Below the pieces are notes generated by a model. It was not told the origin of the DNA and did no database searches. It was given only the letters and a program-made list of their open reading frames with translations. From positions 8,431-72,430 of the forward strand of contig PCXZ01000034.1 of the NCBI GenBank assembly GCA_002762985.1: a DNA stretch of 64,000 bases, read 5' to 3'. Below are positions 7,444-47,159 of this stretch, in pieces (the first letter of the stretch is position 1; each line of letters opens with the position of its first letter). Both the position numbers and the translations under genes were made by a program. The DNA is from Candidatus Woesearchaeota archaeon CG10_big_fil_rev_8_21_14_0_10_44_13 (GTDB lineage Archaea; Nanobdellota; Nanobdellia; Woesearchaeales; UBA12501).

Positions 7444-7630
7444 TTTAGGCATTTATGCGGCTGACAACATTTATATAAAGCCCCGATTTCTTTGTTTCAT
7501 GCCGATCCCCTACTTCCCGAACGACAACTGGTGGTCTTTGCCTTTCATGGCTTCTGTGATGACCTTTGTTGCGATAGTCGTTGCGTTCTATATTGCCTAT
7601 AAAGAGGCGAAGAGGAAGGATCTGAATGTT
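7389..7630. repeat. direct repeat copy B (partner of 5836-6100)
   Basis: See copy A. Together the two copies bracket the 1.3-kb ATPase gene. Confidence 0.7.
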
Positions 7631-8320
7631 GATATGTTCTTCATGTCTGCACTTTGGATGGGTGCTGGTGCGTTGATCGGAGGATGGCTTGCTTTCTTTT
7701 TGACGCCTGGGCCGGGGTTCCTTAATATCTACCATCCTGGGGCGCATAGTGTGGGGGTGATTGTTGGAGGGGGGTTGGGAATAGCTGCTTATTGTTTGTA
7801 TAAAAAAGAGAATATAAAAAAAAAGTGTGGGAATCTAACAATATTCTTTACGAACCTTGCTGAAATATGGGGTTTAGGTGCCATGATAGGTACTTTTTTT
7901 TATAGGATTGGAGATTTCTTGAGCCATTGCATCGAGATTGGGACTCCGACTAACTTGCCTTGGGCAGTCATTGATAATGGAATAGCAAGGCATCCGATTA
8001 ATTTGTATTATTCACTTGCAGGGATAGTGATTTTTGTTATTTTAATTGAAATAAATAAAATTAAAATATCAAAAGAGGTTAAAGGATATACTCTAACCTG
8101 GTTTTTGATGATATATCCACTTTCAAGATTGTTTGTGGATTTATATAGGGTCCAATATTCAAAATTTTTTGGTTTAAGTGTTGATCAATTGATATTCTTA
8201 TTATTGACTATCCAATCTATAATTGCAATAATGGCTATCCACATATTATACAGATTTGAAAAAAGAAGACAGTTTGTTTATCCCCCATTAGATTTGATAA
8301 GATATTTGCTTAAAAAATAG
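7499..8320 (+). CDS. prolipoprotein diacylglyceryl transferase (Lgt) family membrane protein, paralog 1 (divergent)
   Basis: Multi-TM. Contains YRIGDFLSHCIEIG...WAVIDNGIARHPINLYYSLAG, which is collinear with the Lgt signature region (G-R-x-G-x-F...HP-x-QLY) seen in the three paralogs at 19.7-24.3 kb. The start is taken at the ATG matching the duplicated copy (7499), not the upstream ORF-track start. Confidence 0.55.
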   Translation: MPIPYFPNDNWWSLPFMASVMTFVAIVVAFYIAYKEAKRKDLNVDMFFMSALWMGAGALIGGWLAFFLTPGPGFLNIYHPGAHSVGVIVGGGLGIAAYCLYKKENIKKKCGNLTIFFTNLAEIWGLGAMIGTFFYRIGDFLSHCIEIGTPTNLPWAVIDNGIARHPINLYYSLAGIVIFVILIEINKIKISKEVKGYTLTWFLMIYPLSRLFVDLYRVQYSKFFGLSVDQLIFLLLTIQSIIAIMAIHILYRFEKRRQFVYPPLDLIRYLLKK

Positions 8321-8328
8321 TATAATTT

Positions 8329-9057
8329 TTATTTTAAACACACAAAATAATTATACAAACCGCTAGTATTTTCTTTTTTTAATATAACTTTAGGAGATTT
8401 AAATAAAATTAAAACAGAAGTAATGTAGGTGAGTAAACTCTGAGAGGTTATCGCAGTTCCTTGGGTGTAAACATCTACATTTTTAAAACCTTTATTTTTT
8501 ATAATATTAAGAAGTTCTTCCGTTTTAAATTCTTTTTTATGACTATTACAAAAAGGTTTTTTTGTGTTAAATAAGGCATCATTGAATTTTTTATTGGGCG
8601 TTGAAAGGATCATCACTCCTCCTTTTTTTAAAAGTTTGTAGACTTCTTTTAAGAATAGGCCATAATTATTTATATGTTCTATGGTTTCTAGAGAGACTAT
8701 CACATCAAATGACCCTTTAGCTAATTTTGTCTGCGTAGCTTCTGAACAGATAAAATGAAGATTTTTTGAGCGATATAGCTTTTTATTTCTTTTTATAGTG
8801 TCATGGTCCATATCAACTGCATAAACTTGGAATGCTTTTTTTGAGAGAATATTCGAACCATAGCCACACCCGCATGCAATATCCAAAACAATATCACATT
8901 TAGTTATATAATCTGAAGCAAAATTGTATCCCTGGGTATGAAAATTTTTCATTGTATTGAAAATGATATTTCTCCTTCCGTCCATATCAAATCGTTCTGT
9001 GCTCATCATCGGAGAGAATAATCGCCTTAATCCTTTATTGATTAGAGTAGCGCCCAT
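8329..9057 (-). CDS. class I SAM-dependent methyltransferase
   Basis: Motif I VLDIACGCGYGS, an acidic post-I residue and the motif-II-like FDVIVSLETIEHI. It is the last gene of the minus-strand radical-SAM cluster. Confidence 0.75.
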   Translation of the reverse strand: MGATLINKGLRRLFSPMMSTERFDMDGRRNIIFNTMKNFHTQGYNFASDYITKCDIVLDIACGCGYGSNILSKKAFQVYAVDMDHDTIKRNKKLYRSKNLHFICSEATQTKLAKGSFDVIVSLETIEHINNYGLFLKEVYKLLKKGGVMILSTPNKKFNDALFNTKKPFCNSHKKEFKTEELLNIIKNKGFKNVDVYTQGTAITSQSLLTYITSVLILFKSPKVILKKENTSGLYNYFVCLK

Positions 9058-9066
9058 ATCAAGACC

Positions 9067-10077
9067 TCATGAGCTCAAAAAAAATCTTAGTTTATGGCTG
9101 CTGTAATAACTCTCGCAAAGGGCATAGTTCTCTACGCAGGATTTATTGCATTCAACCAATCTTTTTTCGAACATGCCCTTATAGGTTTGGTAGTAATTTT
9201 TATCAATGCCCTTAATGTTGACGCCTAAAGACTTCGTTTCAGGGCATAAGGATATCTCACCACCCAAACCTACAGAGAAGAAATGCCTGCCTGCCCCGCA
9301 TCTCCAATTATATCTACCGCGTATAAACTCTTTCATATGTTCATAACAGTGTATAGGTTCGAATATGGGATAACCTTCTTTTTTCTTTTTTATTAAAGTA
9401 TCAAAAAGTAAATCTAATTCTTTTAATTGTTTTTTATTGAATACTGTATTTTTGCTATAAGATATGAATTTAGATGGGGGCTGTGTCACCAAACAGGTGG
9501 TTATTATTATGCCTTTACCAGTTATACGCTCAAGGAGAGGGATTACCTCGCGGGTGTTTAATCCAGTAAGAACAATATTTACTGCGATGAACAGGCCTTT
9601 TTTCATGGAAGCATATTCTAAGTCCTCAATAAGGCAAGGATTATCAGATAGCGTTTTCTTGGACTGTCTTGCTCTGTTTATGCCGTCTAAGGAGACCACC
9701 ATTGAATTCATGCCTGCATCTGCAAGCTTATCGATCAGCTCTTTTGATAATAAGGTGCCGTTTGTGTCCATTACTACAAACATATTTTGTTTATTGCAAT
9801 ATCTGGTCAATTCTACAATGTCCTTCCTTAAGGTAGGCTCTCCACCCATAAAATAAACCATATTGCAGCCTATCTCCTTTATCTTATCAATCCTCTCTTT
9901 TAAATCATTTAATGGGGGGTCCTTACTATTCTTTTTTATGAAACAATAAGAGCAGTCCAAGTTGCAGTTTCTTGTGACAAACAGACCTACGAACATTGGG
10001 GAAGGTCGGTTGAATAAGAATCTATTCAATGCAGGGATAATATTCGATTTGATAAATAATAATTTTTGTTTTTTCAT
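9067..10077 (-). CDS. radical SAM enzyme with a C-terminal SPASM/twitch Cys-rich domain (peptide/cofactor-maturase type)
   Basis: CxxxCxxC (CNLDCSYC) near the N-terminus and a GGEP motif. C-terminal cysteines (CGAGRH..., SLCPE, CNKSCVENYALC) are as expected for SPASM. Confidence 0.75.
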   Translation of the reverse strand: MKKQKLLFIKSNIIPALNRFLFNRPSPMFVGLFVTRNCNLDCSYCFIKKNSKDPPLNDLKERIDKIKEIGCNMVYFMGGEPTLRKDIVELTRYCNKQNMFVVMDTNGTLLSKELIDKLADAGMNSMVVSLDGINRARQSKKTLSDNPCLIEDLEYASMKKGLFIAVNIVLTGLNTREVIPLLERITGKGIIITTCLVTQPPSKFISYSKNTVFNKKQLKELDLLFDTLIKKKKEGYPIFEPIHCYEHMKEFIRGRYNWRCGAGRHFFSVGLGGEISLCPETKSLGVNIKGIDKNYYQTYKGMFEKRLVECNKSCVENYALCESYYSSHKLRFFLSS

Positions 10078-10088
10078 TTTATATGCCC

Positions 10089-11162
10089 TTAAAATGGTTT
10101 TCTGATCAGATCATAAATCTTGTTTGGAAGAATCATATTCAAAAAGAAATGAAAACCGTTAAACTCTTCAAAGGTTTTATTTTTTAAGCAATTTGAACAT
10201 ACTAAATCAGAAGTGATATCTTTTCGTTTGAATATCATCCTTCTTGCAGTTAAGTAGTTTGGACCGTTCCAAACACTAAAAAAACTTTGGTTAGAGATAT
10301 TACCGAAAGTGTGGTTATCCCCATATATCAAACAACAAGGGAATACGCCCCCATCAAAATTAATTGCCGATGAGACGTTCAGGTATTTACAGTTTTTTGG
10401 ATTTTTCAAATAAAGTTTGTATTCCTTATTAGAAGGGAACCAATCGCGATACTTCTTTAATTTAGTAGTATTATCTTCAAAAACCCCCTTACCCAGATCA
10501 GATCTTACTCTGGATAATAATAGCTTATCAAAACCTAGGCGAATATATTGTTTTTTGATGGTGTCAACTTCGTGCTCATTATATTTATTCACTATAAACT
10601 GGCAGATTATCTTAGGTCGTTTAATGCCATACCTAGTTTTGTAATAGTTTATTAAGCGTACATTCTTTAATACTTTGTTTAAATCGCCACCAATCCTATA
10701 TTTTTGATAAGTCTCCTGAGTCAAACCATCTAACGAAACTATGAGGTACCATAATCCGGATCTTACTAATTGTTTGCATGAGTTTCTGTCTAAAGTAGTC
10801 AGATTAGAGCTCGTTATAGGTATAACTAATTTTTTTCTGCTTAATTTGATAAATCTGAATAAATCCTTATTCAAGAAAGGTTCACCCCAGTTGTATAAGA
10901 ATAAGAATAAAGAATAATCCCCTATTTCACCCATTACCCTTTTGAATAAACTATATTTCAGGAATCCGCGTTTCATCCCCCTATCGCCCTGTCCGGTGGG
11001 GCATAAAGGGCACTTTAAATTACAAACATTCCCTGGGTCCATAAAAATATATAACGGATAAGCATTGACATATTCTTTATTAAATGAATGATAATAGGCT
11101 ATATTAATAGCATTCCAGAGTTTCTTATAAAAAACTTTTTTGAAGATAATTGTTGGTTTCAT
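10089..11162 (-). CDS. radical SAM enzyme with a C-terminal SPASM-like domain (second copy)
   Basis: CNLKCPLC (CxxxCxxC) and a GEP motif. C-terminal CCLIYGD...CSNC cysteines. Confidence 0.7.
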   Translation of the reverse strand: MKPTIIFKKVFYKKLWNAINIAYYHSFNKEYVNAYPLYIFMDPGNVCNLKCPLCPTGQGDRGMKRGFLKYSLFKRVMGEIGDYSLFLFLYNWGEPFLNKDLFRFIKLSRKKLVIPITSSNLTTLDRNSCKQLVRSGLWYLIVSLDGLTQETYQKYRIGGDLNKVLKNVRLINYYKTRYGIKRPKIICQFIVNKYNEHEVDTIKKQYIRLGFDKLLLSRVRSDLGKGVFEDNTTKLKKYRDWFPSNKEYKLYLKNPKNCKYLNVSSAINFDGGVFPCCLIYGDNHTFGNISNQSFFSVWNGPNYLTARRMIFKRKDITSDLVCSNCLKNKTFEEFNGFHFFLNMILPNKIYDLIRKPF

Positions 11163-11166
11163 TCGA

Positions 11167-12105
11167 TCAGCCTGAAAAGTTCAATTTTTGTCCTAACCCC
11201 TTAGACCCAATTGATTTTAATAGATAAAAAAATGATTTGAATCTCGAATTATTATTTTCTTGACTATTTATCATCTTAAATGATGCTGATATAATTAAAT
11301 AAAAAAATAAAATAATTAACCATACAAAGTATAATAACAATAAGAATAGGAATTTAAAAGATAAATGTTTCTTTAAGAAAATGTATAGGCTATTATTAAA
11401 ATTATATATGACGAATGGGGAAAGGGAATGTTTTATTGTTCCCCCCCATTTATGCAATATCTTTACATTATCAGCCCTCTTTGTTTTAAAGCCTTTGAGC
11501 CTCGCTCTTTTCCCATAATCAAAATCGTCAAAATAAAAGAGTCTTTCATCAAAATAACCAATTTCTTTTGCTTTATTATTATCAATCATCATTGCACACC
11601 CATCAACCATAGAATTCCATTTCGCCAGTTTTAAGGAATTTATGATTTTTAATAACCAAAAGCTCTCAAAGATTTTTTTATCTTGGTTATCCAGTAAATA
11701 TGAAGTTGGAAAGACTATTGCTGTGCTTTTATCATTATTAAAATAGTTTAAAATAAGGTGTAACATATTTCTATCAGTTATTATGGTATCCACATTCAAG
11801 AAAAAGGTATAATCAAACCCTTTGTTTATTGAATATTTCAACCCGTTATTATTTGCTTTTTGTAACCCTCTATTTTTTTTATTTTTCATAACTATCAGGC
11901 CATATCCCTTTGCGTAATCTAAAGTTTTATCCGAAGAAGCATTATCAATCAATAAAACTTTATAATTATTATACTCTAATTTAAATAAAGAAGATAAACA
12001 ACTTTTTATATACTTTTCACTATCCCAGCTTACAATTACAAATAAGATTTTTGGGTCATAACTATGTTTTTTTATTTTAAATGTCATTTTAGCCATCAAT
12101 ACCAC
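11167..12105 (-). CDS. family 2 glycosyltransferase
   Basis: N-terminal GT-A fold signatures (VIVSWDSEKY, LLIDNASSD, DxD-like NVDTI) and a C-terminal TM helix. It overlaps the upstream B12-rSAM gene by 10 nt. Confidence 0.7.
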   Translation of the reverse strand: MVLMAKMTFKIKKHSYDPKILFVIVSWDSEKYIKSCLSSLFKLEYNNYKVLLIDNASSDKTLDYAKGYGLIVMKNKKNRGLQKANNNGLKYSINKGFDYTFFLNVDTIITDRNMLHLILNYFNNDKSTAIVFPTSYLLDNQDKKIFESFWLLKIINSLKLAKWNSMVDGCAMMIDNNKAKEIGYFDERLFYFDDFDYGKRARLKGFKTKRADNVKILHKWGGTIKHSLSPFVIYNFNNSLYIFLKKHLSFKFLFLLLLYFVWLIILFFYLIISASFKMINSQENNNSRFKSFFYLLKSIGSKGLGQKLNFSG

Positions 12106-13616
12106 CCCGGCTTCGTGTTGTAATTGACCTTCCTTCCAAGCAAAGATTCGCTCAGCATCCCCCTGATGAACCTGAAAGACATCTTGGCCTTGTGCCCTGA
12201 CATCGAGCTGACGGCATTCTTCCTCCTTGAAGAACCGAGATTCAACCCTGCAAACTGCTCTTTCCTTGTCCTTATCCTAAGCTCATTGAGCATCATGTAA
12301 AACATCAATTGATTCCTTGACAGGTATTTCGACCTTGCGACAGGATTTATGAAATTATAGTACTTGAAATCCTTTATCTCTATAAGGTTTTTCTTCTCAA
12401 GCTCATCAAAATACCTTGTGCCTGGGTTCGGCGTCAAAGGCAATGGAACGCCGGTGTCAAAAGGTATCCCATTCAGCAGATCATAGAACCTTTTCAATGA
12501 CTGCCTTGTCTCATTAGGCAGCCCGTAAAGATATGTCGCTACAGAATAGACCTCAGGATATCTCCTGACTATCTCGAAAGCCTTTTTTATCGTGTCATAT
12601 GAATAGCCTTCCTTGTCAAGATACCTCAGGTCATCATTGTCTGTCCTCTCCACACCTATCATCACCTGCTTCAATCCGGCTTTGACCTGTTTCCCAAAAA
12701 TGCCTTTCTGCTCATCCCTGACTATGAAATCAGCCCTGAGCCATACTGAATGATCAATGTCCAGGCCGGTCTTTATCATCTCTTCAGCGAATTCCCTGTT
12801 CCATCTCGGATTCACGTTCCATGTGGGGTCAACCCAGCAGAAGGTCTTCCTGTTGAATTTCTCATGTAAATATGCAACCTCCTCAACTGTCCTTTTTACG
12901 GATTTGGTCCTGTAATGGGGCCTAACTTTCCCTGTTTTCATATCGAGCTGGCCCATCTGCTTCCATAGTATGCAGAAGTTACAGCTGCATGTGCAGCCCC
13001 TGCTGTGTTCAACAGCTACAAAATTCCTATGGTTCCTGCTCTTGCCGCCATAAGCGCCCATATCCAAAAGATCATATGCTGGCATAGGCAGGCTGTCAAG
13101 ATTTTTTATCAGGGGCCTTAACGATGTTTCAATCACTTTCCCTTTATCCTTGTATGCGATGCCATTTATCCTGCTCAAATCCTGCTTCGACCTGTCTTTT
13201 TTCAGTTCCCTGACAAGCTCAAGAAGTGTCTCTTCGCCCTCAAACCTCACAACAAAATCTATCTGGTGGTTATTGAGGGAATCGTTGGCCATGTATGTGA
13301 AATAAGTCCCTCCGGCGATCACAATAAGCTCTGGAAACATTGATCTGGCGATATTGACAAGCTTAAAAGCCTCGTTCACAGAGACAGTCTCTTCGCCAAT
13401 ACAAAGTACATCCGGCTTCTCCCTTTTCAATGCTTCTGGGACGCTTTTCCAGCCGATCTTCAGGGCAGGAAAGTCTATTATGCCAATTTTTATATCATCA
13501 ATATTCTCCCTGAGAACCGCGGCCATTGATGCGAAAGCCAGGGGCTGCCAAAAAGAGCTGTTTTCAGAATGGAACGGCCACATATACCTGGGCGGCCTGA
13601 CAAATAGTATCTTCAT
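12096..13616 (-). CDS. B12-binding (class B) radical SAM enzyme
   Basis: The N-terminal Rossmann-like cobalamin-binding domain (KILFVRPP...VLCIGEETVS...IAGG) is followed by the radical SAM core with CxxxCxxC (CTCSCNFC). 506 aa. Confidence 0.8.
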   Translation of the reverse strand: MKILFVRPPRYMWPFHSENSSFWQPLAFASMAAVLRENIDDIKIGIIDFPALKIGWKSVPEALKREKPDVLCIGEETVSVNEAFKLVNIARSMFPELIVIAGGTYFTYMANDSLNNHQIDFVVRFEGEETLLELVRELKKDRSKQDLSRINGIAYKDKGKVIETSLRPLIKNLDSLPMPAYDLLDMGAYGGKSRNHRNFVAVEHSRGCTCSCNFCILWKQMGQLDMKTGKVRPHYRTKSVKRTVEEVAYLHEKFNRKTFCWVDPTWNVNPRWNREFAEEMIKTGLDIDHSVWLRADFIVRDEQKGIFGKQVKAGLKQVMIGVERTDNDDLRYLDKEGYSYDTIKKAFEIVRRYPEVYSVATYLYGLPNETRQSLKRFYDLLNGIPFDTGVPLPLTPNPGTRYFDELEKKNLIEIKDFKYYNFINPVARSKYLSRNQLMFYMMLNELRIRTRKEQFAGLNLGSSRRKNAVSSMSGHKAKMSFRFIRGMLSESLLGRKVNYNTKPGWY

Positions 13617-13672
13617 TGCGCTATAACCCCCATTATCCTTTTTTTAGTATGATATTATCCTGAATTTAAAAT

Positions 13673-14152
13673 TCATTTCCTCAATACCTTATTTATATTC
13701 TTAAAAAACGTGTATGCATTATCGAGCGATTCTTTTGCGGGTTCTTTGTTGGCTTGGGGCAGTTTCTGATAAGTAAACTCTCCCCTTTTCCCTTTCTCTC
13801 TTGAAAAAATACCTAAAAGCTCTTCTGCCCTTATTATCATTTTTTTGTAGATTTTCAACAATTCAACATCAAGTTTGCCTGTCTTGACCAGATACATCTC
13901 AAAAGCACCAATAGTCTTCCTGTGGACTTCAGGAGACCCCGTTTTTATATCCCCCTCCATCAATATCGCCTTGGCAGAGTTAAATATGCAATAATAAGAA
14001 TTGCTTATCACCAAGCTGTAAAAAGTAAAGTTTTTCTCCAGCTTAAACTGCTCTTTCTGCAGTTTTGGATTATTTGAGATGTCAAAAAGTATCTGGGCTG
14101 CTGCAAGCTCATTTTCTGCCCTTTGTAGATATAACTCCGCTTCATCTTTCAT
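13673..14152 (-). CDS. HEPN-domain protein (toxin-like partner of the upstream nucleotidyltransferase)
   Basis: The N-terminus YLQRAENELAAAQILFDIS is HEPN-like. The gene lies 1 nt downstream of an MNT-type nucleotidyltransferase gene on the same strand. Confidence 0.55.
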   Translation of the reverse strand: MKDEAELYLQRAENELAAAQILFDISNNPKLQKEQFKLEKNFTFYSLVISNSYYCIFNSAKAILMEGDIKTGSPEVHRKTIGAFEMYLVKTGKLDVELLKIYKKMIIRAEELLGIFSREKGKRGEFTYQKLPQANKEPAKESLDNAYTFFKNINKVLRK

Positions 14153-14153
14153 T

Positions 14154-14759
14154 CTATTTTCCTCTTATCAGATTAAGATATTCAATAAATCCATAATAGA
14201 CGATATTGTTTTTGTATATCTGTTTTCCCAGATTTTCATAATCAACTTTCAGCATTTCCAAGAATTCATCTCTTGTCATGATATGATAGTCTATACGCAG
14301 AATCTCTCTTCTTTTTATTGTCTCCAGATAAGGGGATACTTCTTTTTTTGTCTTTTCTGATTCGACAATGATTGCTATATCCAGATCTGATTTCTCTTTT
14401 GCCTTGCCCTTGACATGGCTGCCGAATACGATTAAAATGAAAAATTCAGTATACCCCGATACCTTTGCCTGTATGCGCTTTAGCACATCCACCGGCATCT
14501 TGTTTTTGCTTATCTCCAGCTCATTTACAAGGTTTAAGTAGGATAATGTCAGGTTATTGTCCAAATTCAAAAAATAGGTCGTCACATCCCCTGTCTCTTT
14601 TGTCTTTATCAGGCCCTGCTTTTTGAATTCCTTTAACGCAATCTGGATCAGGTTGTTTGATTTCTGCCTAAGCTGCTCTTTTATCTGCCTGAAGGTGAGC
14701 CCTATAGATATGTCTCTTTTAAAACAGCCTATGATTTTTATCTGCTCTTTTGTCAGCAT
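14154..14759 (-). CDS. minimal nucleotidyltransferase (MNT) protein with an N-terminal winged-helix region; HEPN/MNT pair
   Basis: FILIVFGSHVKGKAKEKSDLDIAIIV is the GS-x(n)-D-x-D polymerase-beta-type NTase motif. It is adjacent to the HEPN gene. Confidence 0.65.
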   Translation of the reverse strand: MLTKEQIKIIGCFKRDISIGLTFRQIKEQLRQKSNNLIQIALKEFKKQGLIKTKETGDVTTYFLNLDNNLTLSYLNLVNELEISKNKMPVDVLKRIQAKVSGYTEFFILIVFGSHVKGKAKEKSDLDIAIIVESEKTKKEVSPYLETIKRREILRIDYHIMTRDEFLEMLKVDYENLGKQIYKNNIVYYGFIEYLNLIRGK

Positions 14760-14766
14760 TTTAGTT

Positions 14767-14804: not shown

Positions 14805-14829
14805 TTATAAAAAGTTTATGGTTTTTAAC

Positions 14830-15678
14830 TCAATTCCTCCTATCAACGACAAACCTCGCGATCTCCCCCAATATCTCGGCTTTCCCTTCAAAGACAGACA
14901 AGGCTTTGATAGCATCCCACATATAATTCTTCATCATCTCCCTTGATTTCTCAGCTCCGTAATGCGTGACAAAGGTATTCTTCTTCTCATCCTTCTGCGT
15001 GTCCTTGCCCAATTCCTCAGGAGTGCTCTCGATATCCAGCAGATCGTCCTTTATCTGGAATACCAATCCGAGATTCTCTGCGTACCTGAGCAAGGCCTTG
15101 GCCTCCTTTTCAGGGGCTTTCGCCTTTATGCACGCTGCCTTAACGGCTCCGATGAACAAAGCGCCTGTCTTATGCTCGTGGATGTATTTCAGGGTCTCAA
15201 AATCGATCTTCTTGTTCATGGTCTCAAGGTCCACTGTCTGGCCGCCGGCAACTCCCTGCGAACCCAGGCAGGACGAGATCTCATGCGCCACATCGATATC
15301 ATCAACGATCTCTATCGCCCTCAGGATGAGGCTTATCGCGGCAAGATCAGCGATATCCTCCCCAAAGACCTTATGGCAGCACGGCTTTCCCCTTCTTATC
15401 GTCGCATCATCCATGCATGGCAGGTCATCAAGTATCAATAAAGCAGTGTGTGTCATCTCCAAAGCGCAGGCAGTGGCCATCATATCTTCCTTATCGACAC
15501 CGAAAAGCTCTGCGACTGCCAATGCTATTATGGGCCTTATCCTCTTGCCGCCTGCAAATATAGAATGCCTCATCGCCTTATGCAATGACTGGGGGTAAGC
15601 GCTTTCAGGAGGCAGGAACCTATTCAATGACTTCTCTACCAATTCCTTCCTCTCTTTGAGATAGCTCTGCAATTCCAT
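14830..15678 (-). CDS. trans-polyprenyl diphosphate synthase (GGPP synthase-type)
   Basis: First Asp-rich motif LILDDLPCMDDATIRRGKP and second Asp-rich motif FQIKDDLLD; 282 aa. Confidence 0.85.
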   Translation of the reverse strand: MELQSYLKERKELVEKSLNRFLPPESAYPQSLHKAMRHSIFAGGKRIRPIIALAVAELFGVDKEDMMATACALEMTHTALLILDDLPCMDDATIRRGKPCCHKVFGEDIADLAAISLILRAIEIVDDIDVAHEISSCLGSQGVAGGQTVDLETMNKKIDFETLKYIHEHKTGALFIGAVKAACIKAKAPEKEAKALLRYAENLGLVFQIKDDLLDIESTPEELGKDTQKDEKKNTFVTHYGAEKSREMMKNYMWDAIKALSVFEGKAEILGEIARFVVDRRN

Positions 15679-15754
15679 TCTAACCCCCTGGAAGCTGTAA
15701 AATATGTTTTGTTTTTAAATATTGCTGTGGTTGGGCAAAGGCTATCCGCAAGAT

Positions 15755-15799
15755 TTATATATATCATAAATTATGATAATAATATCACAAAAAGTGATA
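15755..15799. promoter_or_regulatory. TATA box (tttatatatat) followed by two inverted repeats (atcataa-a-ttatgat; tatcac-aaaaa-gtgata) upstream of the gene at 15838
   Basis: Palindromes at 15763-15777 and 15783-15799 sit where the transcription start is expected, ~25 nt after the TATA box. Confidence 0.4.
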
Positions 15800-15837
15800 A
15801 TTTTCATATAAGAATAATTGAAAAAGAGAAAGCAAAA

Positions 15838-16398
15838 ATGCCTCTAAAAGAAGCCACATACAGGGAGAAGATACTTCTTTACCTAGCTAAGAACCCAGGC
15901 AATAATATAACGGGCAATAAGATATCGAATGACCTTGACCTGTTCTATTCCCTTGTCCATAAGACGATAAAAGACCTTGAGAAAGACGGCCTGCTGAAGA
16001 TAGAGAAAGTAGGCAATTACAAGCTCCTGAAGCTGAGCCTTGACAGGCACAGGACACTGCTCGAACTTGCTCTCCTGTCCCACAGGCTGAAAGAAGAGCG
16101 TGAGAAAGAAGGGAAGATTGACAGCAGGATAAACATGTTCTTGGGCAGGATAACAGGCGAGAAGGATGTCCTCTCGATAATACTTTCTGATAAGGATGTT
16201 TTCATCATCTCAAACAATGTGACGATGCACCTTGAGATAATGTCGAAGACAGCAGATATAGGCAAGGAGATCTCCATAATAAAACATGATGAGTTCGGCA
16301 GGATGCTTTCTGACGAGCAATTCGCAGGCAGGATGCTTGACGGAATCGTGCTTCACGGCTATGAAAACTTTTGGAGGATGATAGCTGAAATAAAGTAA
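15838..16398 (+). CDS. hypothetical protein with an N-terminal winged-helix-like region (putative transcriptional regulator)
   Basis: Start taken at MPLKEATYREKILLYLAKNPGNN...KISNDL, a wH-like region. The upstream ORF-track extension crosses the TATA box and is unlikely to be coding. Confidence 0.4.
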   Translation: MPLKEATYREKILLYLAKNPGNNITGNKISNDLDLFYSLVHKTIKDLEKDGLLKIEKVGNYKLLKLSLDRHRTLLELALLSHRLKEEREKEGKIDSRINMFLGRITGEKDVLSIILSDKDVFIISNNVTMHLEIMSKTADIGKEISIIKHDEFGRMLSDEQFAGRMLDGIVLHGYENFWRMIAEIK

Positions 16399-16435
16399 AT
16401 CATAGCCGAATATCAAAAAAAAGAGGTGTAAAGAG

Positions 16436-19400
16436 GTGGATTTAGATATAAGGGGCTTTTGCCCTGGGAAGAGCAAGAAAGCTCAGCTTGCAGCTTTCAT
16501 CATAATAGGGATTCTCGTGCTGGCCATGGCCGGTGCCATACTCTATTTAGTCACTTCTGCGAAAAAGACAGAGGCAGAGCTGATTGTCGAGAAAGGCATG
16601 GAGGTGAGCCTTGACGAGACGAAGATAAGGGAATACATTACCGCGTGCATACAGAAAGAAGGCAGGGGCCTGGTCGACAAGATAGGGCTGCAGGGCGGAA
16701 CACTGAACTTGGACCAGTTCAGGTATTATTTCAATATGAAATATAATTATCATTGTTATGCCCAAGATGGTTTCGTCTGTGTTAACAGGCTTGTGACAAG
16801 GAATTCCATGGCCCAGGAGCTAAATGCAGCATTGAAGAACAGCCTCAAGAAATGCGTGAATTTCGAGAATTTCAGGAAACAGGGATATGATGTGAAAGAG
16901 CAGGACATGGATGTCAAGACAATTGTAGGGGTGGATGATGTTGATTTTGAGGTGATATATCCCATAACAATCTCCAAGGACAACAATGAGGTCATCCTGA
17001 AAGATTTCAGCGAAAAAGTGGATTCAAGGCTCGGCTTGATGTATGACCTGGCTGTAAAAATAGTCTACCATCACTCTATGGGCGGGGAATTTGACGAGGA
17101 CAGATGGATGCTTGAACATGGCCAGATAAGCATCTCCAAACACAAGCCCTATCCTGACATCATCTATTCGCTGAGCATCAGGGATGCTGCAACCAAAAAA
17201 GAGGAATCCTTCAATTTCGCAATCAAGGGCAGATACTCAATCTATGAGATAGGGCAGCCCACAAAAACCCTTGTAAGCAAAGGATATTGCAGGACAAAGG
17301 ACAATAACTGCTATGTCAATGTAGATCAGGGAGACTGCGCAAAATCATTAGGAGAATGGAGCAATGCCCCTTTCCAGGACGCCCAATGCAGAGGCATGGG
17401 CACCATGCCAGAGCCGGAATGCAAAGGCGATGAATGCAAGAATTGCGGGAAAAGGGAGAACGGCGAATCATGGTGCGAATATGAAGGCATTGTGAGCCCC
17501 GGCTTCTCATTGGTCGGGTCGAGGCATTACAAGGGAAGCTGCATAAACGGCAAGATCTATTACACAGAATGCAGGGATTACCGTGAGGAGATATGCCTGG
17601 AGAACACAGACATAGATGTGCCTAAGGCAGTATGCAGGCCTAACAGATGGCAGGACTGCGCAGAGCAGGGGAATGAGGAGGATTGCATGGACAATTCTGC
17701 AAGGGACTGCTGGTGGTCTGGCTGGCTTGAACTCAACAGGCAGGGCAAGTGCCTGCCTTACATCCCCCCTGGATTTGCGCATTGGCAGCAGAACGGCCAG
17801 GAAGTTTGCGCCATGGCGAATGAGCAGTATGACTGCGGCTATTATACCTGCGGCAAATCATGGGTCGATTCGAGCGCAATATACTGCTACAATATGGGTG
17901 ACTGCGGGAATTACAGGAACACAGAAGATGAGATAACAAAACAGGGATTCTTCAATTTCGACAGCACGCCTTCAGATTATGTCTACCTGACAGATGATCA
18001 GCTGAAAACAGAGATGAAGCCAAAGCTTAAGATGGAAGCGGCGTATGCCCCTGTGCTTGACGGAAAAGAGTATGAAAACCCCCATGGAACAATAAACGAA
18101 TTGATCAATAATGAAGTGAGGTATTTTGATGAGGTTTCAAACTGGAGATTCGAGGATTTCAGGACTAATTACCTGCTTACTGGAAAGATTTACATCCATG
18201 TCCTGCAGACAGCATTGTGCATGCCGTGGCAGGCGCCATACAAAGGCGATGACTGCAAGGAATGCGGCAGCCTGAACAGGCCCTGCACAGAATACAAATG
18301 CAGGAGTTTGGGGCAGACATGCACTTATGAGGAAGTCAATGGAATAGGCTTCTGCTATGATTATTCTGAGAAGGATGATATCCCTCCTAAGATTTTCTTT
18401 GATGGTGTTGTGTTCGGTGATGTGAAGATAGAGAGGGATGTTTTCGGAAAAACAGTTGGTTACAAGTTCAGCAAGCCGCTTGAGCCGAACACAATTGTGG
18501 TATTCTCGATAAATGCGACAGAACCTGTGAAATGCAAAGTAACGTCATTGCCGCAGCCTGAATTCGACCAGATACCCCTTCCAGCGCCCGGCACATTCCA
18601 GGATTATTACACTTTTGTTGATATTGTGCCTAAGGCCCCTGATTTCAGGATAGGCCTGATGAAGTCTTTAGGGGTGAATAACTTCCTTGAGCTCGGCACA
18701 TTTGAAACATACGACGATAAGTTCAAAAAGATAATCTATGATGCCAGGAAATTCGTCAAGGAATTCAAAGGGGGCATGAACAAGGAATTTGCAGAGCAGA
18801 ACATACAGAGGCTTGAGAATATGTGGAATGATGACATCGCACCCAACATAAAGAAAGCCTTTGAAAACCTGGGCGATACACTGAGGGATGTGGCAGTGCA
18901 GACAGAGCAGGGCAACAAGCTTGTTTTCTTCAAATGCATAGACAAGGCAGGGAATGAGAACACTGAAGACCTGTTCATAAAATACAGGATAGGGAAGGAT
19001 GAAAGCGCCCCTGTACTGATGGCTGCATTGCCTGTCAACAACACGAACATAAGCAGTTTTGGAAATCTTTCGCTCTATACGAATGAGCCTGCGAACTGCA
19101 GGTTTGCAGGAAGCGACATGCCTTATGACTCCATGCCCTTGAAGACAGAGACAGAATGCACTCTGCCTCTGATGATTGGAGCATTTAAGCTCTATGAATG
19201 CACACCAAGGGATATCAATGCTTCAAGCGACATAAGAACAAACATATATGTCAGGTGCAAGGATAATCCATTAAAAGTCGAAAGGTACATATTCAATCTC
19301 ACGAAAGGCGATGCCCTCATTCATCTTTTCCCTGAAAATGCCATGACAATAGACCTCAGGGAGAATGACAGGATAATAAACCTCACAATGGAGTTCGAAC

Positions 19401-19702
19401 AATACTTCACATTCCCCAAGGTGAAAGATATAATGGTGAATGCGGATGAGTATGAGATGATAATACAGTCCATAAGGGATGATATTGACTGCGGGTTCTC
19501 GGAAACGCCGGGATTGAGCGTCAGCCAGATGGTACCCATGGCCTGTGAAAAAGGCGGCCTTGAAGGCACATACCAGTGCAGGCATAAGGTCAATGTCCAG
19601 AATAACATGCTCTTTGAGATAGCATGCAGAGGCAGATTCCAGGAAGAGAAAAGGAACACAGCAAAAGAGAGCGCAGTATTGAGCTATCTAAACCTTCCTT
19701 GA
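16436..19702 (+). CDS. giant Cys-rich secreted protein, paralog A (1088 aa), with a class-III/type-IV-pilin-like signal peptide
   Basis: N-terminal ...KSKKAQLAAFIIIGILVLAMAG. Paralogous to 26540..30277 through shared blocks (RHYKGSCINGKIYYTECRDYREEICLE, VCRPNRWQDC, CTEYKCRSLGQTCTYEEVNGIGFCY, CIDKAGNENTEDL). It has more than 60 cysteines. Confidence 0.7.
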   Translation: MDLDIRGFCPGKSKKAQLAAFIIIGILVLAMAGAILYLVTSAKKTEAELIVEKGMEVSLDETKIREYITACIQKEGRGLVDKIGLQGGTLNLDQFRYYFNMKYNYHCYAQDGFVCVNRLVTRNSMAQELNAALKNSLKKCVNFENFRKQGYDVKEQDMDVKTIVGVDDVDFEVIYPITISKDNNEVILKDFSEKVDSRLGLMYDLAVKIVYHHSMGGEFDEDRWMLEHGQISISKHKPYPDIIYSLSIRDAATKKEESFNFAIKGRYSIYEIGQPTKTLVSKGYCRTKDNNCYVNVDQGDCAKSLGEWSNAPFQDAQCRGMGTMPEPECKGDECKNCGKRENGESWCEYEGIVSPGFSLVGSRHYKGSCINGKIYYTECRDYREEICLENTDIDVPKAVCRPNRWQDCAEQGNEEDCMDNSARDCWWSGWLELNRQGKCLPYIPPGFAHWQQNGQEVCAMANEQYDCGYYTCGKSWVDSSAIYCYNMGDCGNYRNTEDEITKQGFFNFDSTPSDYVYLTDDQLKTEMKPKLKMEAAYAPVLDGKEYENPHGTINELINNEVRYFDEVSNWRFEDFRTNYLLTGKIYIHVLQTALCMPWQAPYKGDDCKECGSLNRPCTEYKCRSLGQTCTYEEVNGIGFCYDYSEKDDIPPKIFFDGVVFGDVKIERDVFGKTVGYKFSKPLEPNTIVVFSINATEPVKCKVTSLPQPEFDQIPLPAPGTFQDYYTFVDIVPKAPDFRIGLMKSLGVNNFLELGTFETYDDKFKKIIYDARKFVKEFKGGMNKEFAEQNIQRLENMWNDDIAPNIKKAFENLGDTLRDVAVQTEQGNKLVFFKCIDKAGNENTEDLFIKYRIGKDESAPVLMAALPVNNTNISSFGNLSLYTNEPANCRFAGSDMPYDSMPLKTETECTLPLMIGAFKLYECTPRDINASSDIRTNIYVRCKDNPLKVERYIFNLTKGDALIHLFPENAMTIDLRENDRIINLTMEFEQYFTFPKVKDIMVNADEYEMIIQSIRDDIDCGFSETPGLSVSQMVPMACEKGGLEGTYQCRHKVNVQNNMLFEIACRGRFQEEKRNTAKESAVLSYLNLP

Positions 19703-20422: not shown

Positions 20423-20577
20423 TTTAGCCTCCAAAAACCAATAGTGAACATGATGGCGCCTATGGCTGCAATTGACAGGGAGAATGACTTGATTGAGCTT
20501 ATGTGCAGGAAGCCGAAATCGATCAAAAAACCTCCTGCTATGACAAGAGCGAGATTAAGCGTGTTTTTCCCCATCAT
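20419..20577 (-). CDS. 52-aa two-helix membrane peptide (MMGKNTLNLALVIAGGFLIDFGFLHISSIKSFSLSIAAIGAIMFTIGFWRLK), translationally coupled to lgt paralog 2
   Basis: Not in the ORF track because it is under 60 aa. I translated the reverse strand by hand. The TGA stop overlaps the Lgt ATG (ATGA), and the sequence is hydrophobic with Gly-zipper-like GxxxG/AxxxG. Confidence 0.3.
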   Translation of the reverse strand: MMGKNTLNLALVIAGGFLIDFGFLHISSIKSFSLSIAAIGAIMFTIGFWRLK

Positions 20578-20626
20578 CCAAAGAAGTTGCCCGATTTATA
20601 TAAAATAATCGTTTTTCAGGAAGCGG

Positions 20627-21199
20627 TCAGGATGGGTTTACGGTTGTTGCAACGCCATCTTGGATCGGTTGCGTGTTGCTGGAGCTGCCAGAGGTCTGCT
20701 GTACGTTCTCTTTCGCACCCCCCCCAGCGCAAGACGAGCAGCTGTCGCAGTTGATGACGCCCAGCATGTATAGGAGAAGCAGGACAAGGATGATTATTAT
20801 GACGGCGATTATGACCCAGAATAACAATGATCCTACAAAACCTGCTGTTGACGCTACAGCAGCAGCATCTAATGAGCCTTTGACTGCTACTCCTGTTGAT
20901 CCTAAAGTACCGCTCGAAGTTGATGAAACTGCGGAAAGAGATGAGGTAATTGAAGTGATTGATTGGCCAGCAGTCAAAGTTGTAAGGGTAGCAGTTTCAA
21001 CAAACGCTCTCACTCCTCTAGCCAATAGGGGGATTATAATAGCAGCGCATATTATCGCCAGCATTGTCATTTTCCTGACATTAAACTTTCTTTTCGGAGG
21101 CTCTTTCTTCAGCTTCCTTTCAGAGCTCTTGTGCCTGAAGACAGTCTTCTTTGAGAATAAACCAGGCTTAACGTCTCTTTTGAAGGATATTACGTGCAT
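20627..21199 (-). CDS. S/T-rich two-pass membrane protein ending in a C-terminal Cys motif (NCDSCSSCAGGG)
   Basis: Codon usage (AGG/AGA/AAG) matches the known genes better than the overlapping + strand ORF. A signal-anchor (alternative start MTMLAIICAAIIIPLL at 21070) is followed by a Ser/Thr low-complexity segment and a second TM, then the CDSCSSC tail. It is the middle gene of the rSAM - this protein - peptide - lgt minus-strand string. Confidence 0.35.
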   Translation of the reverse strand: MHVISFKRDVKPGLFSKKTVFRHKSSERKLKKEPPKRKFNVRKMTMLAIICAAIIIPLLARGVRAFVETATLTTLTAGQSITSITSSLSAVSSTSSGTLGSTGVAVKGSLDAAAVASTAGFVGSLLFWVIIAVIIIILVLLLLYMLGVINCDSCSSCAGGGAKENVQQTSGSSSNTQPIQDGVATTVNPS

Positions 21200-21229
21200 G
21201 AGATTGTTATAGCAAGGGAGTATTTAAAT

Positions 21230-22204
21230 TTATTGTATAATCTTCTCCTTCTTCAGGTCAGAGACGCAGTCATGGCAGAACGAAACGCCGTACTTCCTTA
21301 TGCTCTTCTGCCTGCCGTCATAAGTGGCTTTGTCTATCCTCTCGCTCAACTTTGTCCTGTAGTCTGTCTCTAAAAAATGCTTCAGGTCGCCATGCTTCTT
21401 GTATCTGTAATAGCTTAGCTGAGGGATATTGCAGCAGACCCCGAAGCTTCCGTCAGGGAAAACTATGACCCCTCTGTCCAGGACAGAGCATACTTCCTCG
21501 CTGTGGCTGCCTAACCCTAAGAAAATCTGCTTCCCCTGCTCCCTGTACAGCTGAGAGATCCTGTAGGCCATATTGAAATAAAAGTTCATGTCTTCCTCTT
21601 TTGACAGGGTTTCCCTTTCTGTGGCTCCTCCCTGGGGGATTGCCCTGTACAAGGTCAATTTATCTGCGCCTAATTTAGTGAAGATGAAATCTGCTGTCCT
21701 CGGGATATCAGCAAGATTCTCTTTTGTCACGAGAGTTATGAAGCTGGCTCGTGAGGGTCTTGTCATTGCCCATGACCTTAATGCCCCCTCATAGGAGCCT
21801 TTGCCCCTCAATCTGTCATTCTTTTCCTGATCATAAGAATCGAGCGATATGGTGAGAGCCAGCTTCCTTATCCTGGCTAATCTTAGGAAATCGTTTGTTT
21901 TGAGATTGACGCCATTGGTCACAATGTCCATCTCAAATCCCAATGCAGCAGCATATTCGATTATGTCAAAGAATTTGGGATGGGTTGTAGGCTCGCCTCC
22001 TGAAAAGCTGACTGACTTGTACCTGAGCTCTTTCGCCTCTTTCAGCATCTCTTTGGCTGTCTCAAGATCCATTGAGCCTTTCTTCCCCTTGTACAGGCAA
22101 TGCTTGCAGTCCAGGTTGCAGTCGTATGTAAGGAAGATAGAGAGCCACCTGTCAAATCTTGCCCTGGATATTATATCCTCAAGAATCCCCTTCGAAAAAA
22201 GCAT
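21230..22204 (-). CDS. radical SAM enzyme with a SPASM/twitch C-terminal domain
   Basis: CNLDCKHC (CxxxCxxC), SFSGGEP, and C-terminal ...GVCCNIP...FCHDCVSD cysteines. Confidence 0.75.
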   Translation of the reverse strand: MLFSKGILEDIISRARFDRWLSIFLTYDCNLDCKHCLYKGKKGSMDLETAKEMLKEAKELRYKSVSFSGGEPTTHPKFFDIIEYAAALGFEMDIVTNGVNLKTNDFLRLARIRKLALTISLDSYDQEKNDRLRGKGSYEGALRSWAMTRPSRASFITLVTKENLADIPRTADFIFTKLGADKLTLYRAIPQGGATERETLSKEEDMNFYFNMAYRISQLYREQGKQIFLGLGSHSEEVCSVLDRGVIVFPDGSFGVCCNIPQLSYYRYKKHGDLKHFLETDYRTKLSERIDKATYDGRQKSIRKYGVSFCHDCVSDLKKEKIIQ

Positions 22205-22287
22205 TCAGGGCATTAAACGAACATTGTTTATATATTTTTTTGTTGAAAATTGATAATATTAATAAAACAGGGAGGATATCCCAGGAT

Positions 22288-23244
22288 ATGATCCCTTACG
22301 AAATCCACAAGATACTCTTCAAGATAGGGGACAGATTCGCGATCTTCACATGGGGTGTGATGTTCGCAATCGCCTGGATCTTCGCAGGCTATTTCATATA
22401 TATGAATGCGAAGAGCAATAAGGATGTGGATATTAACAAGGCGATGCAGTTCCTGCTTGCAACTTTTGTCGGCGTCCTCTTCGGCTCAAGGCTTTTCCAT
22501 TACTTCGGCCCATGGGGCTATGGAAGCTTCTATGAACGGATAAAACTCATGTTCTCGCCGAAAGGGGGCTGGGTCGCTTACGGAGGGATAATCTTCGGGT
22601 TGGTCTTTTCATATGCGTACTCAAAGATGAAGAAGATAAATTTCCTGAGATACTGCGATATCCTTGCACCGGCGATACCTTTGGGCCTTTTCATGGGCAG
22701 ATTCGGCTGTTTCCTTGCGGGCTGCTGTTTCGGCGCAGAAACCAATGTCCTGTGGGCGATCGAAAGATTCGGGACAACCATCCATCCATCGCAGCTTTAT
22801 GCTGCATTTGCAGAGCTCATCGTCTTCGTTATTATGCTGGAATTGGCCAGGAGGCACAAGGCAGAGAGGAGATATGACGGATATCTGGTCTTCTCGGCGA
22901 TATTGCTCTACTCCATAGCAAGATTCATGACTGAATTCTTCAGGGGGGATTATGGGATTAATGTCTATCATTTCGGATTCACGTTCTCCCAGCTCATATC
23001 GATCATATTGGTCATCTTTTTCGGGACGATGATGCTGCTGAATCAGGGGAAGAGCAGAGGGGCTGTCCCGAAGATAGACAAAGACATGAAATTGAGCTAT
23101 CTGCTCGTCTCCGGCGGAGGCATGCTGAGCATAATCTCGCTGCTGTTCGTCAACATGGACATCGAGATCATGATTGCGCCTTTCGCCTTCGGATTATTGA
23201 TCCTGTTCAGGGGGCTGATGGCCTACACAAGCAGCCATAATTGA
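22288..23244 (+). CDS. prolipoprotein diacylglyceryl transferase (Lgt) family protein, paralog 3
   Basis: Collinear with E. coli Lgt. [13 protein letters not shown] matches [37 protein letters not shown] matches [42 protein letters not shown] matches [24 protein letters not shown] matches IIVEFFRQPD. The start is taken at ATG 22288; the track's TTG start at 22159 reads across a TATA box. Confidence 0.85.
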   Translation: [318 protein letters not shown]

Positions 23245-23313
23245 ACCGGAACCAAAAATCATAAGATTAATATATCCGCTCAAAAAATCCATTGGGATTG
23301 AAAAGGGCTGAAA

Positions 23314-24303
23314 ATGATAGAATATGAGATGCTGAAATATGTCACAATAGGCGGATTAAAGATAGGCTTCTGGTTCACAACACATTATCTCATCGCATGG
23401 CCATTCGCAGCATATTATATCATAAAAGAAACATTAAGGAAAAGAAATTTCGACAAGGGCCTTGATCTTAACAGGATGCTGCAGATGTTCCTCTTGGCTT
23501 TTGTAGGTTCTTTCGTTGGATCAAGGATCTTTGCATTCTATGGTCCCTGGGGCGGAAGTTGTGCAAGCGGGGGGTTTGTAGAAAGGTTCATGCAGATGAT
23601 AAGCCTTGAACAGAAAGGCTGGGTTGCGATAGGGGGGATCATAGGTGGGATCGTCTTCACGTTTGTCTACTCAAAGATCACCAAGTTGAAGTATATGAGA
23701 TATGCGGATATCCTTGCGCCTGCAATAGCTCTCGGATTTTTCATCGCAAGACTGGGATGTTATATCGCCGGCTGCTGTTTCGGCTCCCAGACAGATGTCC
23801 CTTGGGCGATAATAAAAGACAATGTGCCAATACATCCAACACAGCTCTATAACTCCCTGGTAGACCTTGCAATTTTTGTTGTTCTGGTCTGCCTTAGCGA
23901 AAGGAAAGAAAAGAAGAACAGGCAGGATGGCTATGTCTTATCATCGTTCGTGTTCATGTATGCGGTGGGCAGGTTCACGACAGAATTTTTCAGGGGGGAT
24001 TATGACCCTTCAAATTATTTCTTCGGCCTTACGACAACGCAGATAATATGCATTGTATTCTTCCTGATTTCAGCCACATTGATCATAATAAACTCATTGA
24101 AAGAATCCCCGAAAAAGAGGGTAAAGACAGGCTTCCGCATAAGGCCGAAGACCTATGCATTATTGGTTTCAGGAGGCATAATCGCAAACATAGGCGCTTA
24201 TATCATAACCCCTCTGCCTTATCTTGCATTGATAGTCATACCATCGGGCCTTGGAATCTTCTTTTTCGGCCTTACGACAATCTTCTCAAAACCAAAAAAT
24301 TAA
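23314..24303 (+). CDS. prolipoprotein diacylglyceryl transferase (Lgt) family protein, paralog 4
   Basis: [54 protein letters not shown] and [11 protein letters not shown] are the same signature blocks as in paralog 3. Confidence 0.85.
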   Translation: [329 protein letters not shown]

Positions 24304-47155: not shown

Positions 47156-47159
47156 GAAG

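Follow-up and report, generated by a model that had tools for sequence, protein, structure and literature searches.

Does an archaeon carry Lgt, the prolipoprotein diacylglyceryl transferase of bacteria, and if so, what might the enzyme be doing there? The question is raised by a 64,000-nucleotide stretch of DNA from a DPANN archaeon of groundwater, assigned to Candidatus Woesearchaeota (hereafter the window), which encodes four predicted Lgt paralogs, here named W1 to W4. Lgt has been stated to be absent from archaea in papers from 2018 to 2026 (PMC6098224, PMC12462473, PMC13251419), in the mBio 2026 study on the basis of RefSeq genomes (PMC13251419), and a full-text literature search returned no report of Lgt in Woesearchaeota or DPANN archaea. 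A first-pass annotation of the window had described Lgt homologs as rare in archaea, an understatement given that all three papers report no archaeal homolog. We find selectively maintained Lgt-family genes in an archaeon, set in a lineage-specific conserved gene cluster and falling into three subfamilies, one of which has a form with nine transmembrane (TM) helices.

Family membership, signature residues and archaeal host

All four intervals proposed in the first-pass annotation are intact open reading frames (ORFs), whose Pfam matches span about 225-238 of the 240 positions of PF01790 and score 76.9-157.2 bits against a gathering score of 24.9 bits (E values of 1e-21 to 1e-46). As this hidden Markov model (HMM) search places W1-W4 in PF01790, they belong to the true Lgt family and not to a look-alike family of polytopic membrane proteins, the possibility that the annotation had itself raised. 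The start codons it had used are backed by an N-terminus shared across paralogs and orthologs (M-(I/P)-I-P-Y / MIPL), and W2, whose strand it left unstated, lies on the minus strand. The GRxGxFxxG, HP(S/T)QLY and EFFR blocks claimed for W3 and W4 are present and align with those of E. coli Lgt; W4 matches E. coli Lgt (5azb) with a phmmer E value of 2.9e-11. Full-length alignment with hhalign joins both of the other groups to W3/W4, that of W1 at 99.9% probability (E 5e-34) and that of W2 at 100% (E 1e-43). On the strength of these sequence comparisons, membership of W1-W4 in PF01790 is solid. The observation made in the annotation is confirmed and its interpretation is largely right, except for the claim about a cysteine motif discussed below.

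An AlphaFold2 (AF2) model of W4, built from 11 sequences, reached a pLDDT of 83 and a pTM of 0.85. Searching the PDB with this model in Foldseek gave a single significant match, 5azb (E 1.1e-6, prob 1.0, TMt 0.66), so the predicted structure of W4 has the Lgt fold, with extra helices at residues 278-296 and 302-323. The corresponding model of W1 was of low confidence (pLDDT 57), and hhalign was used in its place. The window paralogs share with E. coli Lgt (P60955; 5azb/5azc) the family, the fold in the case of W4, the G-R-x-G signature, HP(S/T)QLY and Y..GR...EFFR. They differ from it in being 23-28% identical, in their archaeal host, in carrying C or D in place of both N146 and E151, in lacking conservation at H103 and, as far as the alignment there allows, at Y26, in a shorter periplasmic head and, for W3 and W4, in two additional C-terminal TM helices.

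In order to compare the signature residues, W1-W4 were aligned to E. coli Lgt, the sequence of which was checked against the 5azb alignment. The equivalents of R143 and R239, the two arginines that hold the phosphate of phosphatidylglycerol and are essential in E. coli Lgt, are arginines in all four paralogs. The equivalents of Y235, R246, G99, G104, G145 and G154 are likewise kept throughout, and at the E243 position W1 has D and the other three have E. Other positions vary, reading (in the order W1 to W4) D/C/C/C at N146, C/D/C/C at E151 and Y/A/G/A at G142. Within each ortholog group R143, G145 and the HP motif are invariant at an overall identity of 50-70%, and R239 is retained wherever the region is present. 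Specifically, FFYRIG and HP are invariant in the W1 alignment, and R132/G134/C135, RHP and Y..GRF..EF.R in that of W2, which holds six orthologs. Conservation of these residues, R239 included, at such identities argues that these are active enzymes under purifying selection.

The first-pass annotation had also suggested that cysteine in place of the bacterial asparagine marks a distinct subfamily shared by W3 and W4. We rejected this proposal because the motif is common in bacterial Lgts and has already been published: about 40 of the top matches to W4, including bacterial-annotated Lgts of ~250 aa, carry GRxGCxxxGCCYG, and N146C with E151C/D has been noted for Leptospira, for M. smegmatis MSMEG_5408 and for other, 'more distantly related' Lgts (PMC13251419). 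What marks the W3/W4 subfamily is a conserved C-terminal extension of ~60 aa with two extra TM helices. The Cys-variant Lgts (L. interrogans, MSMEG_5408 and the ~250-aa homologs) share N146C/E151C and the short head with W3/W4. The ~250-aa homologs, assigned to Clostridia, Elusimicrobia, Thermodesulfobacteriota and Acidobacteria, are the nearest relatives of W3/W4 among the matches listed, at 31-37% identity. Unlike the window genes, Cys-variant bacterial Lgts are usually single-copy and have neither the 9-TM extension nor the neighbours of the module described below (0 of 80 loci).

W3 and W4 are 41% identical to each other, W2 is ~32% identical to both, and W1 is 26-32% identical to the others; by sequence the four fall into three subfamilies, namely W1, W2 and the tandem 9-TM pair W3/W4. 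Each paralog has 4-10 orthologs at 50-71% identity among 5.8 billion clustered proteins, beyond which identity drops sharply to about 35%. When the W3/W4 subfamily was compared with 185,579 GTDB species representatives, all of the matches listed were bacterial, at 37% identity or less, and came from Thermodesulfobacteriota, Lachnospiraceae, Elusimicrobia and Acidobacteria. The nearest W1 homologs that are not orthologs lie in typical bacterial FtsK-PgsA-Lgt contexts. A neighbour-joining tree recovered each of the three paralog groups in 39-40 of 40 bootstraps. It joined the three groups, along with a small number of metagenomic and Parcubacteria sequences, in a clade that appeared in only 1-13 of 40 bootstraps, a support too weak to tell one acquisition from several. 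One W1 ortholog (P0224, 56% identical), on a 2991-bp contig, is listed by NCBI under 'candidate division KSB1 bacterium, partial'; the fragment is probably archaeal and mis-binned.

The archaeal or eukaryotic markers Nop5 and fibrillarin are encoded on the same contig, and neighbouring exported proteins carry class III (pilin-type) signals. GC content at third codon positions (GC3) is 0.50-0.67 for W2-W4, compared with 0.61-0.63 for the Nop5, fibrillarin and ValRS genes; that of W1 is 0.39, under its neighbours. Identical sequence is found in independent NCBI (101.9 kb), JGI (71.9 kb) and Logan assemblies. The host is archaeal, and the codon composition of W2-W4 is host-like. One might suspect that bacterial DNA had been wrongly assembled or binned into an archaeal metagenome-assembled genome (MAG), given that the family is otherwise bacterial, that one W1 ortholog bears a KSB1 label and that the polyprenyl synthase of the cluster is of bacterial type. 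The markers, signals, GC3 values and independent assemblies together make such an artefact very unlikely; with four genes spread across 17 kb of a contig bearing Nop5 and fibrillarin, pilin-signal proteins interleaved among them, and orthologous clusters on other contigs, it is effectively excluded. In a Crystal Geyser MAG of Candidatus Woesearchaeota, W4 has a 100% identical counterpart in COV19_07170 and W2 in COV19_07150, both annotated as 'hypothetical protein'. As the genes have been public under that annotation since deposition of the MAG, they are an unrecognised counter-example to the stated absence of Lgt and not new data.

A gene neighbourhood kept on other contigs

The first-pass annotation had further linked the Lgt genes to giant surface proteins. 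Two such giants, A (1088 aa) and B (1268 aa), are real, and their association with Lgt is kept on other contigs. In locus L001 the order is ATPase, W1-type Lgt, two B12-binding radical SAM enzymes (B12-rSAM), two radical SAM (rSAM) enzymes, two polyprenyl synthases, a helix-turn-helix (HTH) protein and giant A, with the Lgt gene directly abutting the B12-rSAM gene. The HTH protein is a 54%-identical ortholog of its window counterpart in the same position; the ATPase, an ATPase_2 protein with a faint AAA_14 match, also holds the same position and gave no match to the window ATPase at E<=1e-8. In L002 the W2-type gene stands tail-to-tail with giant A, the same convergent arrangement as in the window, where the two genes overlap by 15 bp at their ends (19688-19702). 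Orthologs of giant A adjoining Lgt genes in L001 and L002 are 61-62% identical to it.

Loci L003-L005 carry the order B12-rSAM, polyprenyl synthase, W4-like Lgt, MopE-motif protein, orf311 and giant B. The Lgt-MopE order is kept in L003, L004, L005 and L087, the orf311 ortholog (49%) holds the same position in L003 and L004, and a giant B ortholog (55%) lies downstream of Lgt, MopE and orf311 in L003. In L001 and L003-L005 Lgt genes are adjoined by polyprenyl synthase orthologs at 78% identity. L086 and L087 both keep the tandem Lgt-Lgt pair, and L087 reads rSAM, Lgt, Lgt and MopE protein, with an rSAM fragment 65% identical to the 21230-22204 enzyme of the window and in the same upstream position. 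None of 80 bacterial Lgt loci had polyprenyl synthase, radical SAM, giant or MopE neighbours.

Two of these recurrent neighbours resemble known enzyme types. NCBIfam scores for the window B12-rSAM are 220 bits for BchE, 103 for HpnJ and 87 for HpnR, all under the respective cutoffs. The polyprenyl synthase reaches 268 bits for FPPsyn (cutoff 275) and 261 for CrtE, compared with 141 for the archaeal IdsA.

The giants belong to a family with at least 479 relatives in JGI metagenomes and no detected Pfam domain, and many of the loci carrying relatives (L090-L169) show repeated matches in tandem or even larger genes with multiple domains. Three of them share a recurrent set of B12-rSAM, a Rossmann protein and a convergently oriented Lgt gene (L090, 18196-21526; L097, 6792-10056; L107, 3358-6316). 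The Rossmann protein, a predicted NAD(P)-binding protein of 294-296 aa, was seen in L090 and L097, and the Lgts of this set form yet another subfamily. Counting L001 and L003 with these three loci, B12-rSAM adjoins Lgt in five. In L095 (7039-9594) an SMC gene and a gene for a DUF6938 protein flank an Lgt that shares 61% identity with P0108; downstream is encoded a giant of 1353 aa, the N-terminus of which may resemble a glycosyltransferase.

Possible roles of the four paralogs

We favour, with a little better than even confidence and judging by sequence, the reading that W1-W4 are active Cys-lipidating Lgt transferases of bacterial ancestry, long resident in a narrow Woesearchaeota lineage, where they diversified into the three subfamilies, and recruited to a surface-protein module. 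The arginine pair would bind a glycerophospholipid at the outer membrane face, the donor being archaetidylglycerol or phosphatidylglycerol, either self-made or scavenged from a host; DPANN and Candidate Phyla Radiation (CPR) organisms of Crystal Geyser are thought to scavenge lipids (PMC7242380). The lipid-glyceryl group would then be moved to the Cys thiol of an exported protein to give a thioether anchor, as with bacterial Lgt, and the polyprenyl synthase, B12-rSAM and rSAM genes would plausibly supply or tailor an isoprenoid lipid. Cys-rich surface proteins belong to the same conserved module as the Lgt genes, so the most likely place for the acceptor genes is the module itself. The best candidate is the MopE-motif protein, in which an N-terminal signal or anchor is followed by GGGxGCCDC, invariant in all three orthologs (G48-G52, C53, C54, D55 and C56 in the alignment), and the acceptor site would be the GGGxGCC that follows the anchor; we treat this as a lead and not as evidence. 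The annotation had proposed a scan for lipobox or alternative Cys-containing acceptor motifs. When each possible start in the window, in any of the six reading frames, was scanned for a lipobox, only spurious internal or antisense ORFs matched. Cysteines near the pilin-like signals of the giants were also considered as acceptors and rejected, as they are not conserved in the orthologs.

Several observations weigh against the favoured reading. No canonical lipobox is present in the real genes of the 64-kb window (~10 exported proteins), no Lsp (signal peptidase II, SPII) or other lipoprotein-pathway gene was found by Pfam among ~50 ORFs and the contig flanks, and the signals of the giants are of the pilin type, not the lipoprotein type. 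Against the NCBIfam model TIGR00544, with an equivalog cutoff of 118.9 bits, W2 scores 83.6, W3 106.7 and W4 99.7, and W1 gives no match; as all four fall under the cutoff, functional equivalence to bacterial Lgt is not certified by it, and family membership does not establish it. (The best other NCBIfam model, NF000778, scores 47-133 bits against a cutoff of 334.) In E. coli Lgt N146 is essential, as are H103 (or Y, W or F in its place) and Y26; cysteine at N146 with C or D at E151 is, however, widespread among bacterial Lgts, working enzymes included (PMC13251419). The H103 equivalent in W1-W4 is V/Y/Y/I, of which Y is a known substitute and V and I are not, and the Y26 equivalent is A/L/W/F, in a part of the N-terminal arm where the alignment is uncertain. 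W1-W4 also have ~25 residues fewer than E. coli Lgt in the periplasmic head, a domain that matters for function in E. coli, leaving in the W4 model a single beta-hairpin (166-173); a reduced head is also seen in the ~250-aa homologs nearest to W4. An Lgt gene lies within 10 kb in only 4 of the 80 best giant-relative loci (L090, L095, L097 and L107), and there belongs to further Lgt subfamilies, so giants do not generally need an Lgt. There exists an Lgt radiation in giant-bearing, apparently DPANN lineages, in which most giants have no adjacent Lgt. Finally, Lgt is tightly linked to polyprenyl synthase and B12-rSAM, which would fit a role in a lipid pathway equally well.

That last point leads to the possibility, which we consider quite unlikely, that the Lgt fold here performs alkyl- or glyceryl-transfer on a lipid or small molecule, acting with polyprenyl synthase, B12-rSAM, rSAM and, in relatives, the NAD(P) oxidoreductase, for example in remodelling scavenged or isoprenoid lipids. 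Lgt repeatedly adjoins B12-rSAM in the five loci named above, polyprenyl synthase in the window, L001 and L003-L005, and the Rossmann protein in L090 and L097; neither a lipobox protein nor Lsp was found nearby, and aberrant Lgt subgroups have been suggested to use other substrates (mBio 2026, PMC13251419). Yet the subgroups of suspected altered chemistry lack R143 and R239, both of which W1-W4 keep, and Cys-rich exported proteins are co-conserved with the genes. We know of no precedent for a non-protein acceptor in PF01790, which also speaks against such a role. A more conventional account would make the paralogs housekeeping Lgts that lipidate lipobox proteins encoded elsewhere, replacing or supplementing AliA, with their proximity to giant and isoprenoid genes incidental. 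Conserved catalytic residues would suit it, as would the prediction that DPANN archaea are lipobox-rich while AliA has gaps among them (PMC12462473), and on the bacterial side the nearest homologs are ordinary Lgts, present singly and adjoining PgsA. We nevertheless hold this account to be unlikely: the synteny with polyprenyl synthase, B12-rSAM, giant and MopE genes is kept across several contigs from diverged lineages, the four paralogs fall into three old subfamilies, and 0 of ~10 exported window proteins have a lipobox, with no Lsp in the ORFs scanned.

It is also conceivable, and in our estimation distinctly improbable, that some of the paralogs are decayed or non-catalytic, serving as inactive scaffolds or substrate-binding partners. 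W1 is the foremost suspect: at the positions of G142, N146, H103 and Y26 it has Y, D, V and A, its HMM score is the lowest of the four, and its TM3 is followed by an insertion. The W3-W4 pair might likewise form a heteromer with one inactive subunit, and M. smegmatis MSMEG_5408 is presumed to be of low activity. R143, R239, Y235 and R246 are nonetheless present in all four, R143, G145 and HP are invariant among orthologs, and R239 is kept where its region is present. Beyond the favoured reading of active transferases recruited to a surface-protein module, one may conceive of a second lipidation system of bacterial derivation in DPANN archaea, distinct from AliA, in which Lgt paralogs would place a tailored isoprenoid or a host glycerolipid on non-lipobox cysteines (GGGxGCC) of host-attachment surface proteins, polyprenyl synthase and B12-rSAM making or modifying the lipid. 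In this specific form we regard the idea as doubtful. If true, it would mean that Lgt crossed the 'lipid divide' with both donor and acceptor specificity changed.

AliA and AliB of Haloferax volcanii (arCOG02177) are proposed to attach a thioether-linked archaeol to the lipobox Cys, two conserved arginines being proposed to bind the anionic lipid (PMC12462473, PMC13631571), and would do the same job in archaea as is proposed here for W1-W4. AliA reaches an HHpred probability of only 29% against PF01790 (PMC12462473); set beside the E values of 1e-21 to 1e-46 for W1-W4, this marginal match makes AliA, compared by its published description, a different family. In bacteria, ~10% of genomes have two lgt copies and the maximum is four: Deinococcus and Marinilactibacillus have as many as four, two are present in Streptomyces and M. 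smegmatis, and the B. cereus group has plasmid copies linked to dedicated lipoprotein substrates (PMC13251419). Like the window, such genomes hold several paralogs, some with altered signature residues. In the window, by contrast, the four lie within 17 kb in a small-genome DPANN archaeon, form old, separately conserved subfamilies and sit in a cluster of surface-protein and isoprenoid genes. They also differ from bacterial Lgt genes in not lying beside pgsA and in having no Lsp or lipobox protein found nearby. The annotation had called a four-fold expansion next to giant surface proteins unexpected; four copies in 17 kb stand at the top of the known range even for bacteria (PMC13251419).

What is new is a variant of an established enzyme family, found in a domain of life and a gene context where it was not expected; its function, donor and acceptor are our readings of the sequence. 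AliA and AliB were discovered on the premise that archaea have no Lgt, to which the window, with four conserved Lgt genes beside Nop5 and fibrillarin, is a clean counter-example. Whether an Lgt-fold enzyme can use archaeal lipids (sn-glycerol-1-phosphate, ether-linked, isoprenoid) becomes a testable question, as does the alternative, whether some DPANN membranes hold host-derived phosphatidylglycerol of the bacterial type. The cluster may also point to how genome-reduced symbionts anchor giant adhesin-like proteins, and the paralogs, as four naturally altered versions of an antibiotic-target enzyme, with changes in the head, the arm and the signature residues, lend themselves to studies of structure and function.

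Other features of the window

The features discussed here are collected in Table 1; neither a tRNA nor any Rfam family at the gathering threshold was found in the full 64 kb (1-64000).

Table 1. Lgt paralogs, neighbouring genes and host markers, with their positions in the window.
Feature	Positions	Strand	Basis and remarks
AAA_14/DUF4143 ATPase	6108-7388	-	Pfam; flanks W1
Lgt paralog 1 (W1), 273 aa	7499-8320	+	Pfam LGT 76.9 bits, E 2e-21; most divergent; insertion after TM3
Low-GC block: class I methyltransferase, radical SAM, SPASM radical SAM, GT2 glycosyltransferase	8329-12105	-	Pfam
B12-binding radical SAM (BchE/HpnJ/HpnR-like)	12096-13616	-	Pfam B12-binding + Radical_SAM
Short-chain polyprenyl diphosphate synthase, bacterial FPPS/CrtE type	14830-15678	-	Pfam polyprenyl_synt 172 bits
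HTH-domain protein, 229 aa; possible regulator	15709-16398	+	HTH_11 23.6 bits, weak, under cutoff; upstream of giant A
Giant A, 1088 aa, 43 Cys; surface protein	16436-19702	+	Class III pilin-like signal KKAQ/LAAFIIIGIL; no Pfam match
Lgt paralog 2 (W2), 244 aa	19688-20422	-	Pfam LGT 128.6 bits; compact 7-TM form; motif ARIGCFFVNDALG
Radical SAM enzyme, 324 aa	21230-22204	-	Pfam Radical_SAM 81 bits; divergent from W3-W4 pair
Lgt paralog 3 (W3), 318 aa	22288-23244	+	Pfam LGT 157.2 bits; 9-TM; first gene of conserved tandem pair
Lgt paralog 4 (W4), 329 aa	23314-24303	+	Pfam LGT 157.2 bits; 9-TM; second gene of tandem pair
MopE-motif protein, 43 Cys	24334-25377	+	Pfam Cu-binding_MopE 50 bits; directly downstream of W4
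311-aa protein (orf311)	25527-26462	+	No Pfam/NCBIfam match; between MopE protein and giant B
Giant B, 1268 aa, 49 Cys; giant A paralog	26471-30277	+	Pilin-like signal KKGQ/MAAFVLIGL
Nop5	39712-40776		Same contig; archaeal/eukaryotic marker
Fibrillarin	40789-41469		Same contig; archaeal/eukaryotic marker

The low-GC block, with a GC content of 0.26-0.36 compared with 0.45-0.49 in its neighbours, splits W1 from the B12-rSAM gene and is absent from L001; it is probably a later, accessory insertion, possibly a small glycan cassette or one resembling those for ribosomally synthesised and post-translationally modified peptides (RiPPs). An interpretation as a RiPP cluster, based on SPASM rSAM, methyltransferase, GT2 and ABC genes, was rejected because these genes lie in the low-GC insertion and the orthologous cluster lacks them.

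A HEPN / minimal nucleotidyltransferase pair resembling a toxin-antitoxin system (13673-14759, minus strand) lies between the B12-rSAM and polyprenyl synthase genes, and in L002 a different toxin-antitoxin-like pair (UPF0175/DUF3368) adjoins the Lgt gene. Between W2 and the radical SAM gene, two ORFs on opposite strands overlap at 20627-21212, a minus-strand one of 190 aa and a plus-strand one of 179 aa, neither with a family match or a detected ortholog; the 190-aa ORF ends in a C-terminal TM helix followed by CDSCSSC.

Further downstream, a membrane-anchored protein with a thioredoxin (DsbA-like) fold and 13 Cys (43998-45026, minus strand) may oxidise disulfides of the Cys-rich exported proteins. 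A 338-aa protein (46139-47155) shares with giants A and B the class III signal K[KR][AG]Q[LM]A.F.IIG. A third giant (47118-50336, plus strand; 1072 aa, 32 Cys) has a Sec-type signal and a PG_binding_1 (peptidoglycan-binding) domain, a hint of possible attachment of the archaeon to the walls of bacterial cells. On the L095 contig, Rfam identifies a 97-nt tRNA at 17167-17263 that ARAGORN did not call; introns are frequent in archaeal tRNAs, and this one is probably intron-bearing.

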